A stretch of DNA of 64,000 bases from an uncultured Mycoplasmatota bacterium (GTDB lineage: Bacteria; Bacillota_I; Bacilli_A; RF39; UBA660), in contig USGP01000002.1 of NCBI GenBank assembly GCA_900554315.1, positions 10,404-74,403 of the forward strand, written 5' to 3'. Of this stretch, positions 4,739 to 63,938 are shown piece after piece. Within the stretch, counting starts at the first letter, position 1. Each line of letters starts with the position of its first letter. The translations under genes and the position numbers were made by a program. Under the pieces are notes generated by a model. It had not been told where the DNA came from. It did not search any database and worked only from the letters and a program-made list of their open reading frames with translations.

Positions 4739-5118
4739 GGGGCTGTTCCGGTTTCGACGGGAATATTTGAGCACAGATGGCAAGTCGAACACCCACGTTA
4801 CGGGTACAAAAAAATAAACGCAAACAAAATTAAAAATGCAGTTGCTAACATGTTTGGCGGAAACCAAGCAGTAGCATTTGCCTAATAAGAATAAGGCCTG
4901 CGCTTTCTTTTATTTCTTACCTAGGAAATAACTGAAGGTTCAAATTTTATAGGTTATAGCTATTTTTCTCCCAAAAAATAGAAAGAAGTAAAGGGATAAT
5001 ATATTATCTTGGTCGTTAACTACTTGGATAATATATGAATATAATTAGTTAACTAAACTTGTAGAGGTTTGTGTAGCTTTATTTTCGGACAGGAGTTCGA
5101 ATCTCCTCAGCTCCACCA
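4739..5118 (+). ncRNA. ssrA: tmRNA (SsrA), 380 nt with encoded CCA
   Basis: 5' GGGGCTGTTCCGGTTTCGACGGG acceptor/D-like start and 3' GGACAGGAGTTCGAATCTCCTCAGCTCCACCA T-arm/acceptor. The internal tag frame 4820-4885 is GCA AAC AAA ... GCA TTT GCC TAA TAA, giving (A)NKIKNAVANMFGGNQAVAFA with a double stop. Confidence 0.92.
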
Positions 5119-39329: not shown

Positions 39330-39486
39330 AACACCTCCTTAATTTTTCGGGATGCCATAAAAAAGGTTCTCACGAACATAGACGTGAGAACCTTTCGTAT
39401 ACTTAAGATTAAGTCCTCGGTAGGATTTATGTTATACCTACTGTCTATGGCACCTACAAATTGTCTTTATTATATCCTATAACTTT
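39330..39486 (-). promoter_or_regulatory. rplJ (L10) leader with promoter and attenuator hairpin
   Basis: The minus strand carries a TATAAT box, a GTAGG...CCTAC hairpin, then AAAGGTTCTCACG-loop-CGTGAGAACCTTT plus T6 about 30 nt before the RBS. This matches the attenuation-type L10 leader known in Firmicutes. Confidence 0.6.
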
Positions 39487-59415: not shown

Positions 59416-60219
59416 TTAAGATAATGCATTAGCAATCTCAACAAATATTTCTACAGATAATTGTTCAGCACGAACAGTTAAATCATAATGATGTAATTGC
59501 AAAACAGAAAGCACAACATTCAAATCGTATTTTCTCAAATTATTACGCAAATTTTTTCTCTTAAACTGAAAACTATCTCTTACTAATTGAAAAAACAATG
59601 TCTGATTTTTTAATGGTAATAAATTTTCTTTTTTAGTAAAAGAAATTACAACACTATCAACATTAGGTTCTGGAACAAATTCTTTTCTAGATACAAAAAA
59701 CTCCTTTTTTGTATTATAAAAATAAGAAAGGAAAACACTAATCGAACCATATTCCCTACTTCCAGGTTTCGCTGAAAATCTATCGCCAACTTCTTTTTGT
59801 ACCATCATACAAATTTTTTGAAAATCTAATTTACTTTCCATAATTTTCATCATAATAGGAGTAGTTATATAATAGGGAACATTACTAATAAAATACAAAT
59901 TTTGATAAGTGTAATTTAATAAATCATCTTTAATATTGCTTTCTAAAAAATCCTGAAATAATATTGTAACATTAGAATATTCATACAACTTTAAAGCAAG
60001 TTCTTCTTTTAAATCCGTATCAATCTCATACGCTAAAACATTACCAGCACGTTTTGCCAATGCTTTTGTAAGAATAGCTCCTCCTGGACCAACTTCAACA
60101 ACTAAATCATTTTTTGTCAAAGAGCAAACATCCGCAATTCGTTCTACTACAGACTCTCTTTTTAAAAAATTCTGTCCATATTTCTTTTTAAATTTAACAT
60201 CATAATGTTCCACATCCAT
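59416..60219 (-). CDS. rsmA: 16S rRNA (adenine1518/1519-N6)-dimethyltransferase
   Basis: KKKYGQNFL, VVEVGPGGAILT and SNVPYYITTP. Confidence 0.9.
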   Translation of the reverse strand: MDVEHYDVKFKKKYGQNFLKRESVVERIADVCSLTKNDLVVEVGPGGAILTKALAKRAGNVLAYEIDTDLKEELALKLYEYSNVTILFQDFLESNIKDDLLNYTYQNLYFISNVPYYITTPIMMKIMESKLDFQKICMMVQKEVGDRFSAKPGSREYGSISVFLSYFYNTKKEFFVSRKEFVPEPNVDSVVISFTKKENLLPLKNQTLFFQLVRDSFQFKRKNLRNNLRKYDLNVVLSVLQLHHYDLTVRAEQLSVEIFVEIANALS

Positions 60220-60262
60220 CACCAATAAAACTATAACATAATAAAAAAAGAAAGACAATAAA

Positions 60263-60925
60263 CTATATAATTTCAATGTCTTCCACTAAATTATCCTTAC
60301 TGTCTCTCTTCTTTTTCTGCTTCTGTATTTGTTGTCTAATACGAATAGCTTCACTTACAATTAAATATGCAAGTGGTAACCCAATACATAAAATCCAACC
60401 AAAATAAGTAGATAAAAATTGACGAATATAACCTAAATATGGAATTCTAAAAAGTACTTTACCATATACATCATCCTCATCAACCAAAGTAGCATCAGCA
60501 ACATTATTATTATCACCTTTTGTACGATATAATAACCTACCATCTTCTGCTTCTTCTATACCAATAATTCTATGAGTAATAACTTTTCCACTATAATATG
60601 GATCACGTCCCATATAGCTAATAATATCACCCTGTTTTAAATCATCCGAATCTGTTCTCTGAATAATAATAGCATCTTGAACATTAATAGTTGGTACCAT
60701 ACTAGGACTAACAATAACATAAGCATCAAAAAGTGGGGGTTTATCTTCTCCAGATTTAAGATTATATAATAAATCACCAAAATAAAAAATAAACAATAAA
60801 AATATAATCATTAATAATAAGAAAATAACATATAGGATTACTTTAGTAATAAAATGTAAAAAAAACTGCAAAATTTCTTTTACTGAAACAACATCGTCAT
60901 GATTAGTATCAAAATATTGTTTCAT
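60263..60925 (-). CDS. sipW: Signal peptidase I, ER/archaeal (SipW) type
   Basis: IVSPSMVPTI, GDIISY, VITHRII, LYRTKGDNNNVADATLV and IPYLGYI, plus a C-terminal TM segment and charged tail. It aligns block by block with B. subtilis SipW (VVSGSMEPTF, GDVITF, VTHRIV, TKGDNNAAAD, LPYAGYM). Confidence 0.85.
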   Translation of the reverse strand: MKQYFDTNHDDVVSVKEILQFFLHFITKVILYVIFLLLMIIFLLFIFYFGDLLYNLKSGEDKPPLFDAYVIVSPSMVPTINVQDAIIIQRTDSDDLKQGDIISYMGRDPYYSGKVITHRIIGIEEAEDGRLLYRTKGDNNNVADATLVDEDDVYGKVLFRIPYLGYIRQFLSTYFGWILCIGLPLAYLIVSEAIRIRQQIQKQKKKRDSKDNLVEDIEII

Positions 60926-60993
60926 ACTAATCCCTCCTATCTATCATCATAACAATGATATCACGGTATTTTAAAAAAAACTAGTTTTCGTCA

Positions 60994-61020
60994 GAAAAAA
61001 AAGAGGAGTTTACATCCTCT
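60994..61020 (-). terminator. Short hairpin plus T-run between paralog 3 and sipW
   Basis: Minus strand reads AGAGGA-TGTAAAC-TCCTCT plus T8. Confidence 0.5.
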
Positions 61021-61645
61021 AAATAACTTTTGCTGTCACATTTAATTTAATATTAAAATTTCTACTTACAGAATCGATAATAGTATTTTGATCTACCCAC
61101 ATTCGAAGCCTAAAATTCTCACTAAGATCTTTAGCCTCATCTGAAGTATTACTAAAAGTACCAGAGTATAAAACCATTGTTCCTTTTTTACTACCTAAAA
61201 AACTATCCTCCGTTAATGCATGAAAGTGTTGAGGAATAGAAGTAATTGGTGTATCAGTGTATTGATTCAAATCATATTTTTGCAAATACAACTTAACAGA
61301 GTCATCACTCAACATCTCAGTATCTGTTTTTACTTTTTCTGCTGAAATCTCATAATTTAAAGTGGTATGTGGCGCCAAATTCGTACGAACAACAAACTCA
61401 TAAACATTACCATCTCCAGTTAAATTTTTTCCTACATCATCACTCATTGGCATCATACTATTCATAGAAACAGATTTACTTTGATTATTAAAAGATAAAG
61501 AAATAGTTCCTGTAGATATCATATTACTATTAGAATCAGAAATAAAAGAATTATAAGCTGCATAACTGACTCCTACAAAAGCAATAATTAAAATAGAAAT
61601 GCCAACAATAGATAATATAATTTGTTTAGATTCTGTCTGTATCAT
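61019..61645 (-). CDS. TasA/camelysin-superfamily-like secreted protein, paralog 3 (carries a SipW-cognate-type signal)
   Basis: Start at ATG 61645 after GGAG. ...FVGVSYAAYNSFISDSNSNMISTGTISLS matches TasA ...GGTWAAFNDIKSKDATFASGTLDLS. It shares the MPMSDDVGKNL, YEFVV, YEI, VKLYL and FRLRMWV blocks with the two upstream genes. Confidence 0.6.
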   Translation of the reverse strand: MIQTESKQIILSIVGISILIIAFVGVSYAAYNSFISDSNSNMISTGTISLSFNNQSKSVSMNSMMPMSDDVGKNLTGDGNVYEFVVRTNLAPHTTLNYEISAEKVKTDTEMLSDDSVKLYLQKYDLNQYTDTPITSIPQHFHALTEDSFLGSKKGTMVLYSGTFSNTSDEAKDLSENFRLRMWVDQNTIIDSVSRNFNIKLNVTAKVI

Positions 61646-61703
61646 ATAAATTTCTCCACTTCCTATCATAATAATCATAACACACATTAATTGTTTTGGA
61701 AAT

Positions 61704-61728
61704 AAAAAAAAGACCTCTCATGAAGTCT
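61704..61728 (-). terminator. Hairpin plus T-run between paralogs 2 and 3
   Basis: Minus strand reads AGACTTC-ATGA-GAGGTCT (one G-U pair) plus T8. An extended -10 (TGTTATGAT) follows, ahead of paralog 3. Confidence 0.5.
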
Positions 61729-62320
61729 AACTTACTTTTCCATATACTTTTACTTGAACAGAATATGTCCCGGCCGGATCAACAACAGCACCTTCTCTAA
61801 CCCACATTCTTAATCGATAATTATCAACACGATCAGATGATAAAGAAACTCTATTTAAAACCATAGATTTGGCTGGACTACCCAAATTTGATTTCTTCTT
61901 AATTGGAGTAAATGCCTCAGGTTCTGTTACTTTAGCATAAGTACCACTATTTTGTTTTTCTAAATAAACAACAATATCAGAATCAGAAATTGTTGATGAT
62001 TTATCTTTTATCAAAGCAATTTCATATTTAACTGAATCATCATTACTCACTTCTGATGAAACGGAAAAATCAAAATAACTTCCCTCATCACGTAAAGATT
62101 TACCTGTTTCATTATTCATTGAAGTTAGATTATTAAGAGCAAAAGTATTAGTTGCTGTTTTATAATTCATAGATACCACATTTTTACTTACAACTTCACG
62201 AACATTAGCTTTTTGTTCACGAAAAAACATAAAAAAGGCAAAAACTACAACAGCAATAAGAAGTACACTTACTCCTAATACACACAATACAACATTTCTT
62301 GTTTTATGACCTTCTTTCAT
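61727..62320 (-). CDS. Paralog 2 of the TasA-like family (N-terminal signal anchor)
   Basis: AGGAGG RBS overlapping the stop of paralog 1. One TM segment. Blocks are ETGKSLRDEG, YFDFSV, KYEI, IVVYL and YRLRMWV. Confidence 0.6.
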   Translation of the reverse strand: MKEGHKTRNVVLCVLGVSVLLIAVVVFAFFMFFREQKANVREVVSKNVVSMNYKTATNTFALNNLTSMNNETGKSLRDEGSYFDFSVSSEVSNDDSVKYEIALIKDKSSTISDSDIVVYLEKQNSGTYAKVTEPEAFTPIKKKSNLGSPAKSMVLNRVSLSSDRVDNYRLRMWVREGAVVDPAGTYSVQVKVYGKVS

Positions 62321-62328
62321 ATTTCCTC

Positions 62329-62925
62329 CTAATTTTTAATTTTTGCATAAAGTGCAATTTTAAAACTTCGATACTCTGTCGTAATAGGATAGGAATCATC
62401 TAACCACATACGTAATCTAAATTTTTTTGTTTCACCCTTTTTTAATGTACCTGAATATAACTGTTTACCAGCTGGATCACTGGATGCTACCTTTAAACTC
62501 TTATATGTCGGAACCATCTTATTACGATAAGCATCAAATGGTAAATCAGACTTTCCATCAGTTAAATAAACTTTAACATAATTAGTAGGAAGTTCTAGTG
62601 CAACTCCTACAGGAATAGCATAAATTTCATATTGAATAGAATCTATTCCATTCATATTAGAAGACAATGAAAATTCACTATATCCATATTTACCATGGTT
62701 TTCTGTATAATCTAACTGCTTGCCTAAATCATCTGTAATTGGCATAGAACTATCAACAGATAAACCAGAAGACTGTTCAGAATAAGAAAAAATTAATGTA
62801 GCATTTTTAGTCGCAGAATCATTACCACGAAAATACAAAAGAACACATCCAATAAACGTACATAAAGCAAATAAAATTAATGCAATCATAATAAATAATG
62901 TAGAATGTGAATACTGCTTTTTCAT
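62329..62925 (-). CDS. Paralog 1 of the TasA-like family (N-terminal signal anchor)
   Basis: ATG 62925 after AGGGG. One TM segment. Blocks are MPITDDLGKQL, YSEFSL, QYEI, VKVYL and FRLRMWL. Confidence 0.6.
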   Translation of the reverse strand: MKKQYSHSTLFIMIALILFALCTFIGCVLLYFRGNDSATKNATLIFSYSEQSSGLSVDSSMPITDDLGKQLDYTENHGKYGYSEFSLSSNMNGIDSIQYEIYAIPVGVALELPTNYVKVYLTDGKSDLPFDAYRNKMVPTYKSLKVASSDPAGKQLYSGTLKKGETKKFRLRMWLDDSYPITTEYRSFKIALYAKIKN

Positions 62926-62938
62926 AGTCACAACCCCT

Positions 62939-62956
62939 ATTCTATAGATATAGAAT
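62939..62956. promoter_or_regulatory. 18-bp palindrome (ATTCTATA-GA-TATAGAAT), candidate operator in the promoter region of the paralog cassette
   Basis: Perfect 8-bp arms read directly from the sequence. It lies 14 nt upstream of the paralog 1 start and overlaps -10-like TATTCT/TATATC hexamers. Confidence 0.4.
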
Positions 62957-62980
62957 ACACTATTTTGTATTTTTTTTCAA

Positions 62981-63733
62981 CTAATCTAAACGAAAAACTG
63001 TTTTTGCTGTTTGAGTAGTAATACGCTCTACTTCATCTAAAGTAACATTTTGACATTCGGAAACCTTTTTCGCTACAAGAGGAATATATTTAGAACTATT
63101 TTGTTGACCACGATAAGGGGCTGGTGTTAAATAAGGACTATCTGTTTCTAAAACAATTTTATCTAGTGGAAGTTGAGCAACAACACTTCCTAAATTACTA
63201 TTTTTAAATGTAATAACCCCACCAATGCCTAAAACAAAACCCATCTTAATATATTCTCTTGCTGTTTCAATACTTCCATTAAAACAGTGAATAACTCCAC
63301 GAACAGAATATTTTTTCAAAGTCTGAATAGTATCATAAGTAGCATCTCGACTATGAATAACAACTGGTAAATGAAGTTTTTCAGCAATCAAAAGCTGTTT
63401 TTCAAATAGAGAAATCTGTTGTAAACGATCTTCTTTTCCATAATGATAATCTAATCCAATTTCTCCGACACCAATAACTTTTTTATTCATTAATTGCTTT
63501 TGTAATAATTCAATATCTTCATCATGATAAACACTTGCCTCAGATGGATGATACCCAATCGTAACATAAACGTCAGAAATTTTATTAGCATAATCTAAAG
63601 ATTCTAAAATACTATTCTTATCACATCCAGAAATAATAATAGGACTAACACGATTTTTTCGATTTTCATCTAAAATCTTCTTTATATCATTATAATCATT
63701 TTTCGACAAATGACAGTGTGTATCAATAAACAT
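62981..63733 (-). CDS. tatD: TatD-family metal-dependent DNase/hydrolase
   Basis: MFIDTHCHL, GEIGLDYHY, VIHSRDA, GVIHCF and LETDSPYL. Confidence 0.9.
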   Translation of the reverse strand: MFIDTHCHLSKNDYNDIKKILDENRKNRVSPIIISGCDKNSILESLDYANKISDVYVTIGYHPSEASVYHDEDIELLQKQLMNKKVIGVGEIGLDYHYGKEDRLQQISLFEKQLLIAEKLHLPVVIHSRDATYDTIQTLKKYSVRGVIHCFNGSIETAREYIKMGFVLGIGGVITFKNSNLGSVVAQLPLDKIVLETDSPYLTPAPYRGQQNSSKYIPLVAKKVSECQNVTLDEVERITTQTAKTVFRLD

Positions 63734-63764: not shown

Positions 63765-63938
63765 TTAATGATATTTTTTCCACTCACATACCTTCATTCT
63801 AAAATAAAATAATACTAAAAAAACTAAATATCCAAAATCTAAAAGATTTCTAGTAAAAACTACATACAAAAACATCAAAATAATATAAAAAAAACAAACA
63901 AAGTCTACTGTAAAAAACTGCCAATTATTTTTTAACAT
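63765..63938 (-). CDS. Possible small membrane protein (57 aa), not in the ORF track
   Basis: The reverse frame gives MLKNNWQFFTVDFVCFFYIILMFLYVVFTRNLLDFGYLVFLVLFYFRMKVCEWKKYH. It is hydrophobic. No clear RBS was checked. Confidence 0.25.
   Translation of the reverse strand: MLKNNWQFFTVDFVCFFYIILMFLYVVFTRNLLDFGYLVFLVLFYFRMKVCEWKKYH

Follow-up and report, generated by a model that had tools for sequence, protein, structure and literature searches.

The window analysed here is a 64,000-nt stretch of contig USGP01000002.1 (assembly GCA_900554315.1) from an uncultured Mycoplasmatota bacterium (GTDB RF39; UBA660). The subject of this work is a cassette of four minus-strand genes in this window, which encode three short proteins (P1, P2, and P3) and a signal peptidase and which may together constitute a surface fibre system. 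All four open reading frames (ORFs) were found where a first-pass annotation, made from the sequence alone, had placed them. P1 (62329–62925) encodes 198 amino acids (aa) and has an alternative GTG start at 62931, P2 (61727–62320) encodes 197 aa, and P3 (61019–61645) encodes 208 aa, while the peptidase gene (60263–60925) encodes a 220-aa protein with N- and C-terminal membrane segments. The true start of P3 is at 61645 (MIQTESK), since this is where its orthologues begin, the site is preceded by a GGAG, and a promoter-like site would be covered by the longer ORF starting at 61687. The cassette is flanked by tatD (62981–63733) on one side and by rsmA (59416–60276), yabG, veg, and spoVG on the other; these labels were supported by Pfam matches on syntenic loci.

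P1, P2, and P3 are true paralogues, as the first-pass annotation had concluded from blocks shared by the three genes. BLASTP comparisons gave E-values of 4e-26 for P2/P3, 4e-17 for P1/P3, and 4e-4 for P1/P2, with P1 being the most divergent, and the alignment of the three sequences has the invariant columns GK.L, F.F, YEI, YL, and RLRMW. The N-termini were predicted to have different fates. The signal peptide of P3 (residues 1–29, 61559–61645, minus strand) ends in V-S-Y-A with a predicted cleavage between A29 and A30, and it is followed by residues 30–52 (AYNSFISDSNSNMISTGTISLSF; 61490–61558, minus strand), a candidate donor strand and linker that aligns with residues 28–50 of TasA, the fibre protein encoded by tapA-sipW-tasA in Bacillus subtilis. 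The motif VSYA|AYNSF...STGTISLS occurs in P3 only, and at the position of its cleavage site P2 reads V-F-A-F-F-M-F-F and P1 reads F-I-G-C-V-L-L-Y-F; the alignment therefore agrees with the earlier statement that P3 alone of the three carries a canonical small-x-small site. P1 has a hydrophobic N-terminal segment of ~25 residues with a conserved Cys and lacks a small-x-small site followed by polar residues, while in P2 the sequence V-x-[AS]-F-F-[ML]-F-F is embedded in a hydrophobic stretch of ~24 residues. P1 is thus a predicted uncleaved, membrane-anchored subunit and P2 a predicted anchor subunit that could still be cut, whereas P3 is the predicted major subunit cleaved by the SipW-class enzyme. 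The possibility that P1 is a lipoprotein was rejected as a general feature: a lipobox-like F-x-G-C was found in four of seven orthologues, and the others had V or F at −1 or no Cys.

The gene following the paralogues had been taken for a signal peptidase of the SipW type, that is, of the endoplasmic reticulum (ER)/archaeal kind, and this assignment held at the level of the class. Its product (S26B) scored 105.9 bits against TIGR02228, the model of archaeal/ER-type signal peptidase I with a cut-off of 51.85, and aligned nearly in full length with the Bacillus SipW model NF046067 (94.8 bits, E 4.6e-27), missing the equivalog cut-off of 190 bits. Judged by these scores, the peptidase belongs to the SipW class, yet it is no SipW orthologue by the NCBI criterion. 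Across 72 related peptidases, the catalytic motifs with Ser (SPSMVP), His (THR), and Asp (TKGDNN) show a conservation of at least 95%. As listed, the last 14 nt of the peptidase gene (60263–60276) are shared with the beginning of the rsmA ORF, whereas the two genes are ~44–50 nt apart in relatives.

The arrangement of signals around the genes was consistent with uneven expression of the cassette. The distance from tatD to P1 is 55 nt to the ATG and 49 nt to the alternative GTG, and P2 follows P1 after 8 nt that contain an AGGAGG, which indicates translational coupling. Terminator-like hairpins with T-runs follow the stop of P2 (61701–61728, hairpin 61728–61711, minus strand) and the stop of P3 (60994–61020, hairpin 61020–61002, minus strand). 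Promoter-like sites precede P3 (61674–61702, minus strand; extended −10, TGnTATGAT, conserved in the orthologous intergenic regions) and the peptidase gene (60946–60975, minus strand; extended −10, with CGTGnTAT[TC]AT conserved in orthologous loci). Two hairpin and T-run sites in such a region are not above chance (1.0 ± 1.1 expected), but both recur at the same positions in five other genomes with different stem sequences, as do the two extended −10 elements, TGnTAT(G/T)AT. From this recurrence the presence of three transcription units (P1–P2, P3, and peptidase), to which the first-pass annotation had pointed on the basis of the hairpins and which is now backed by their conservation in six genomes, appears plausible, and P3 is probably a separately controlled, abundant product. 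No terminator-like site was seen after the peptidase gene, and co-transcription with rsmA-yabG-veg is possible. An Rfam scan of the window gave no riboswitch or other RNA element within the cassette.

The gene order tatD-P1-P2-P3-peptidase-rsmA-yabG-veg-spoVG was invariant in the clade of the window (six genomes, P3 identity 55–97%). In a seventh relative with a P3 of 46% identity, a short contig holds three tandem paralogues before its end, and the P2-equivalent retains the canonical cleavage motif. The wider survey relied on a tight subgroup alignment and is consequently biased toward one clade. It comprised 76 species-level genomes, 66 of which had a peptidase at the locus, so that 72 peptidase loci were available together with the six of the window clade. 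In every one of these 72 loci the peptidase gene was directly preceded by 1–7 short paralogues on the same strand, and in 52 of them another ~180-aa member directly followed it. The other ten loci of the wider clade gave no peptidase match, and at least most of them are cut off by the end of the contig, either inside the array or shortly behind it. The array–peptidase arrangement was kept despite large turnover of the array size and identities down to about 25–45%. The proposed cassette of paralogues with a SipW-class peptidase is thus conserved, and in the functional sense its proteins fall into the SipW-cognate class, being encoded beside a SipW-type enzyme. Homologues without such a neighbour, which the first-pass annotation had named as an argument against its proposal if routinely found, are indeed routine among the long, adhesin-type members described below, but not among the short ones of ~200 aa.

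The cleavage region itself was the best conserved part of the array proteins. A small-x-small site was present at the aligned position in 238 of 307 array members, and between species the five-residue cleavage region showed an identity of 0.72, compared with 0.41 for the body and 0.47 for the signal peptide. A signal peptide as conserved as the protein body is unusual for ordinary secreted proteins and typical of the substrates of dedicated enzymes. At least one member with a degenerate site was found in 62 of the 72 loci; such a site usually reads TS(I/M)L-WY-R-FFY, where Leu is at −1, and belongs to the gene directly after the peptidase. In the window clade, this role appears to be taken by P1 and P2. 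They are not orthologues of the class located after the peptidase (+1), since class-specific hidden Markov models (HMMs) scored both of them higher with the model of the upstream array. The apparent lack of the donor segment in the +1 class, to which gaps in match columns had pointed, proved to be an alignment artefact, as the spacer is of normal length (34 vs. 36 residues).

Further genes accompany the cassette in relatives. In 67 of the 76 loci from the wider clade, the array is separated from rsmA by two conserved genes that match nothing in Pfam, one encoding ~229 aa with one membrane segment and the other ~151 aa with about four (e.g., L024 10763–11536 and L069 4592–5047). They are absent in the window clade and could be further components of the system in the wider clade; hhalign and hmmsearch excluded that they are hidden members of the family. 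In the most distant P3-like relative obtained in the first search, tatD and the first family member are separated by a YfhO-family glycosyltransferase gene in opposite orientation (L001 1779–4229, minus strand), which may hint at glycosylation of surface components. An IS110-family transposase gene was found between rsmA and yabG just downstream of the cassette in a Candidatus Faecimonas-type relative (L084 7386–8546, minus strand).

Whether the proteins are related to TasA was addressed separately for the N-terminus and the body. In hhalign, the profile of 46 diverse family members matched TasA with an E-value of 7e-4 and a probability of 26%, aligning family positions 9–92 with TasA 5–78. 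The matched part of TasA covers its signal peptide, the A|A-F cleavage site, the donor strand, the linker, and the self-complementing strand, which in the TasA fibre structure were assigned to residues 28–38, 39–47, and 48–61, respectively, for the last three (PMC9674648). The secreted proteins AmyE, AprE, and SacB, used as negative controls, gave E-values of 0.065–0.27, and TasA with shuffled residues 28–62 gave a median of 0.08, with none of 30 shuffles reaching the real value. Because both the Sec-protein controls and all shuffles scored worse, the match of the family N-terminus is weak but not generic, and a resemblance to TasA is detectable by these comparisons over the first ~75 residues only. 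The resemblance of the signal and mature N-terminus of P3 to TasA, claimed in the first-pass annotation, is accordingly retained in this weak form, while the signal model TIGR04088 gave nothing above noise. This 34-residue model, which requires at least 19 bits, was matched neither by P1–P3 nor by five consensus-like members, and of the 46 members scanned singly (E<=10) two matched it, both with E>=0.15.

No such resemblance was detectable for the body, so that the label "TasA-like" does not extend to it. P1–P3 had no match in Pfam and NCBIfam, including none to PF12389 (Peptidase_M73) or to the TasA model NF046066 at E<=1. Among the 46 members, none matched PF12389 or the BsaA model, and a single one matched NF046066 (E 0.011). 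Likewise, neither P1–P3 nor the scanned members matched TIGR04090 (BsaA family) or TIGR04089 (RER_14450 family). As a positive control, the TasA sequence, verified against PDB 8AUR/5OF1, scored 513.8 bits with the TasA model and 38 bits with TIGR04088 in the same library, and it also matched TIGR04090 and TIGR04089; the consensus-like family members matched none of these four models. BLASTP revealed no similarity between P3 and TasA. Recurring weak matches to DUF7472 and to the SAG1386/EF1546 family were discarded, as they cover the N-terminal hydrophobic region only and the literature on them gave nothing useful. An isopeptide lock of the BsaA type (Asn-Glu-Lys) was also rejected: N41 and K73 are conserved in 86% and 70% of members, respectively, but E99 in only 34%.

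AlphaFold models were obtained for full-length P3 (predicted local distance difference test, pLDDT, 82) and for its predicted mature form (pLDDT 86; predicted template modelling score, pTM, 0.82). Both consist of an N-terminal helix, a disordered stretch, and an all-beta domain of ~160 residues. The sole disordered part in either model directly follows the predicted cleavage site (pLDDT 32), and the next two strands have pLDDT values of 62–68 compared with above 90 in the beta-sandwich body; residues 30–52 are disordered or of low confidence in both. When both models were compared with the PDB by Foldseek, TasA was outside the top 50, and no fold superposable on 5OF1/8AUR was obtained. The matches were weak (template modelling score, TM, at most 0.43) and spread over many unrelated sandwiches, including carbohydrate-binding modules (CBMs), a viral jelly-roll capsid protein, and the staphylococcal ClfA/Sdr adhesins, but also the donor-strand pilins FimG, PapG (pilin domain), and EcpA and the archaeal bundling pilin AbpA, which ranked 44th in one search and 20th in the other (E 2.9e-3, TM 0.29). 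A library of viral folds gave equally unspecific matches.

The paralogues belong to a large family. An exhaustive HMM search yielded 4,235 clusters at 50% identity with E<=1e-3, 1,773 of them with E<=1e-10. All public copies are labelled "hypothetical protein," and neither a curated model nor a paper covering the family was found in the models and literature searched, in line with the earlier suggestion that it is undescribed. The named sources were uncultured Bacilli or "Tenericutes" bins, Candidatus Faecimonas, Candidatus Onthousia, and Clostridium sp. CAG:451, and the family was observed here in uncultured gut Bacilli only. Forty-six of the 146 top representatives are long (300–1,743 aa) and carry the module at their extreme N-terminus, 45 of these beginning with the cleavable-type motif ...[ST][YF]A|[AV]F...T[GS]T[IV]TMxYTE. 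In nine long members that were scanned, the module was followed by Big_2 domains, Listeria-Bacteroides repeats, or BspA-type leucine-rich repeats. No LPXTG-like motif occurred in the last 60 residues of the 46 long members, and no sortase was seen among the conserved neighbours of the cassette loci. Many long members (e.g., P0162, P0148, P0167, P0245, P0251, and P0258) share a C-terminal motif, approximately GVRP(V/A)(V/I)xLKSxVxIxxGxG(T/S)xxxPYxL, to which no Pfam domain corresponds.

A single metagenome assembly held at least 17 genes for long members on 15 contigs. In this assembly (OOIH01; loci L089–L102 and L104), members of 450–560 aa with near-identical N-terminal modules are dispersed over at least 15 contigs, and several look truncated or split (e.g., L102 3910–4445). 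The same assembly encodes a 264-aa fusion of an N-terminal XRE-type helix-turn-helix and a SipW-type peptidase domain with the motifs SKSMEP...HRV...TKGDNN (L091 13662–14456, minus strand).

Considering these results, we propose a donor-strand fibre with P3 as its major subunit, cleaved and transcribed on its own, and with P1 and P2 as membrane anchors; we regard this proposal as evenly balanced between right and wrong. The cassette would then encode a fibre or pilus system of the cell surface that works without sortase and chaperone and relies on the dedicated SipW-class peptidase. P3 would be exported by the Sec pathway and cut after V-S-Y-A(29) by the linked enzyme, and the freed N-terminal ~11–20 residues would act as a donor strand inserted into the beta-sandwich of the neighbouring subunit, resulting in a non-covalent polymer. 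This principle would be that of TasA, BsaA, and archaeal AbpA; for TasA, assembly by donor-strand exchange was described earlier (PMC9674648). Its own promoter and terminator would let P3 be made in excess as the major subunit, while the co-translated P1 and P2, with their degenerate sites and hydrophobic segments of ~24 residues, would stay in the membrane as the base of the fibre, which they would accept or nucleate, and as its tether to the cell. Such a tether fits what was reported for BsaA, whose oligomers were found anchored in the membrane and for which cleavage by SipW after strand exchange was proposed (PMC11580942). The presence of FimG, the PapG pilin domain, EcpA, and AbpA among the weak fold matches was also counted in favour of the proposal. 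On the long members, the N-terminal module could act as a "pilin domain" by which adhesin repeats are plugged onto such fibres.

Several points weigh against this proposal. The similarity of the body to TasA, BsaA, and AbpA is no higher than that of a generic beta-sandwich, and TIGR04088 is unmatched. The AlphaFold models are of single chains, and polymerization is a prediction. The cleavage status of P1 and P2 was judged by eye only, and P2, which keeps V-x-[AS], could be cut. The long members are mostly located away from any peptidase. Furthermore, the chromosomal surroundings (mfd-spoVT-metG-tatD ... rsmA-yabG-veg) are the same in all 76 wider-clade loci as in the window clade; the linkage to the peptidase is therefore phylogenetically one event and may be a single ancestral arrangement kept by vertical descent. 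Adjacency would also say less if the peptidase were the sole type I signal peptidase of the organism.

The proposal can be extended to the whole family, in which case the ~200-residue module would be a universal sortase-free plug for surface display in a large clade of uncultured gut Bacilli: a dedicated SipW-class peptidase would release the donor strand, short paralogues would polymerize, degenerate paralogues would anchor, and adhesins, dozens per genome, would dock. The fibres would form a structurally distinct family whose TasA-like assembly would have arisen either through extreme divergence or because the N-terminal design of signal and donor strand had been reached convergently. Taken together, this chain of claims is possible but doubtful.

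It is unlikely, in our judgement, that the ~170-residue beta-sandwich is instead a CBM-like module which binds carbohydrate or cell wall and anchors proteins non-covalently as SLH, CWB2, and GW domains do, without any polymer. The short paralogues would then be free-standing wall-coating proteins and the long members adhesins anchored through the module. The N-terminal position of the module in proteins without another anchor fits this explanation, and many of the best fold matches were CBM61, CBM32, CBM16, CBM4, CBM3a, and phage tail-fibre or CBM-like domains, but with TM values of 0.2–0.35 these are weak and typical of any jelly-roll sandwich. A wall-binding function also leaves unexplained the dedicated peptidase, the fact that conservation peaks at the cleavage site and over the ~20 residues with which the mature protein begins, the tandem arrays of bare modules, and the degenerate-site paralogue in most loci.

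The shared neighbourhood of all loci can also be read in a simpler way, as one ancestral arrangement in which ordinary bitopic membrane or secreted proteins of unrelated function stand beside a housekeeping signal peptidase. Besides the fact that the loci represent one phylogenetic event, the dispersal of the long members away from the peptidase speaks for this possibility, and so does the failure to see a bacterial P-type signal peptidase in the DNA examined, which is a small part of each genome. We nevertheless consider it quite unlikely, as the adjacency has survived duplication and loss (1–7 copies) and deep divergence, the conserved signal and cleavage motif resembles that of substrates of a dedicated peptidase such as TasA, with a specific profile match to the TasA N-terminus, and at least one related genome encodes a second S26B paralogue, so that this enzyme class is not single-copy everywhere. 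Type IV pilin-like subunits, retaining the hydrophobic helix as the core of a helical filament, are very improbable: although this helix is well conserved, Pfam Pilin_N was weakly matched by three of the 46 members, and the only, insignificant, PDB sequence matches were archaeal type IV pilins (6nav with E 0.049, 8tib, 8fjs, and 6w8x), all pilin E-values were above 0.04. A class III signal was absent from the alignments, in which neither Gly/Ala at −1 before the helix nor Glu5 was found, and genes for a prepilin peptidase, an assembly ATPase, or a platform protein occurred in none of about 80 loci. The enzyme linked to the array, a type I signal peptidase, cuts after the helix.

Compared with known systems, the proposed donor-strand fibre is close in design to tapA-sipW-tasA (PDB 5OF1, 8AUR), where a dedicated ER/archaeal-type signal peptidase is likewise encoded with its substrates, the signal ends with A|A-[FY], and the next ~50 residues, comprising the TasA donor strand, linker, and self-complementing strand, can be aligned with those of the family. 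Both have a beta-sandwich body and an accessory gene beside that of the major subunit, namely TapA there and, presumably, P1/P2 here. In contrast to TasA, the body shows no detectable sequence or specific fold similarity, the mature subunits are of ~180 residues without the helices or the C-terminal tail of TasA, several paralogous subunits occur instead of one, the putative anchors are degenerate-site paralogues rather than TapA-type proteins, and the module is also fused to adhesin domains in many proteins. The sipW-bsaA-bsaB-bsaC cassette of Clostridium perfringens (TIGR04090) similarly places sipW beside at least two genes for matrix or pilin proteins that are paralogues of each other and whose disordered N-terminal region was proposed as donor strand; however, the family described here has no TIGR04090 match and no conserved Asn-Glu-Lys triad, its peptidase gene is last or near-last, and neither a vWA protein nor a link to type IV pili was seen. 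The archaeal donor-strand filaments (AbpA bundling pili, 7UEG; Sulfolobus threads; cannulae) are represented among the weak fold matches by AbpA, but the hosts here are bacteria and that match is no better than those to unrelated sandwiches. AbpA uses a generic signal peptidase (PMC9245690), whereas the peptidase here is locus-encoded and dedicated. The chaperone–usher pili (FimG, PapG pilin domain, EcpA) share with the family the fusion of pilin and adhesin domains, major and minor subunit paralogues in one operon, and weak fold matches to which Foldseek assigned a high probability (FimG, TM 0.43 on the target), yet the organism has a single membrane and no chaperone or usher, and the likeness is that of generic Ig-like/jelly-roll sandwiches. 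Sortase-assembled Gram-positive pilins differ by the LPXTG-like C-terminus and the sortase, both of which were missing here as described above. Signal peptidase I-dependent, donor-strand-assembled fibres are already known as a kind of system; new relative to the known examples are the details of the body fold, the multi-paralogue arrays, the degenerate-site paralogues, and the module on many adhesins.

With regard to its genomic position, the cassette occupies, as stated in the first-pass annotation, the yabE/rnmV slot between tatD and rsmA, and the wider clade keeps a gene for a YabE-like 3D-domain protein before the array. The accompanying idea of an insertion is not supported if a recent event is meant, because the cassette is found throughout the lineage, invariably in this slot, and does not differ from its flanks in G+C content (0.26–0.30). 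A phage origin was rejected on account of the same G+C content and the merely generic matches in the viral fold library. The suggested link to veg was also dropped: this gene is part of a conserved housekeeping gene order that B. subtilis has without the cassette, and a paper on the subject calls veg constitutive only. Veg stimulates biofilm formation, which has no bearing on the cassette. Just upstream of tatD, a small ORF encodes a very hydrophobic protein of 57 aa (63765–63938, minus strand), and a relative whose P3 is 68% identical has a gene of the same size at the same place, flanked by metG and tatD (L004 3696–3869). The only Rfam matches in the window were a tmRNA (4739–5118, plus strand, 167 bits) and a ribosomal protein L10 leader (39351–39468, minus strand, 54.6 bits).

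Even if the proposed mechanism is wrong, the family merits a curated model. If it is true, a large unannotated family with more than 4,000 clusters at 50% identity would join the donor-strand filaments that are assembled without chaperones, and its genetic logic would be a clean one, consisting of cleavable subunits, a dedicated peptidase, and degenerate-site anchors. It would also suggest a way of attaching adhesins without LPXTG motif and sortase in abundant, uncultured gut Bacilli with small genomes, such as those of the Candidatus Onthousia, Candidatus Faecimonas, and CAG-451 type.

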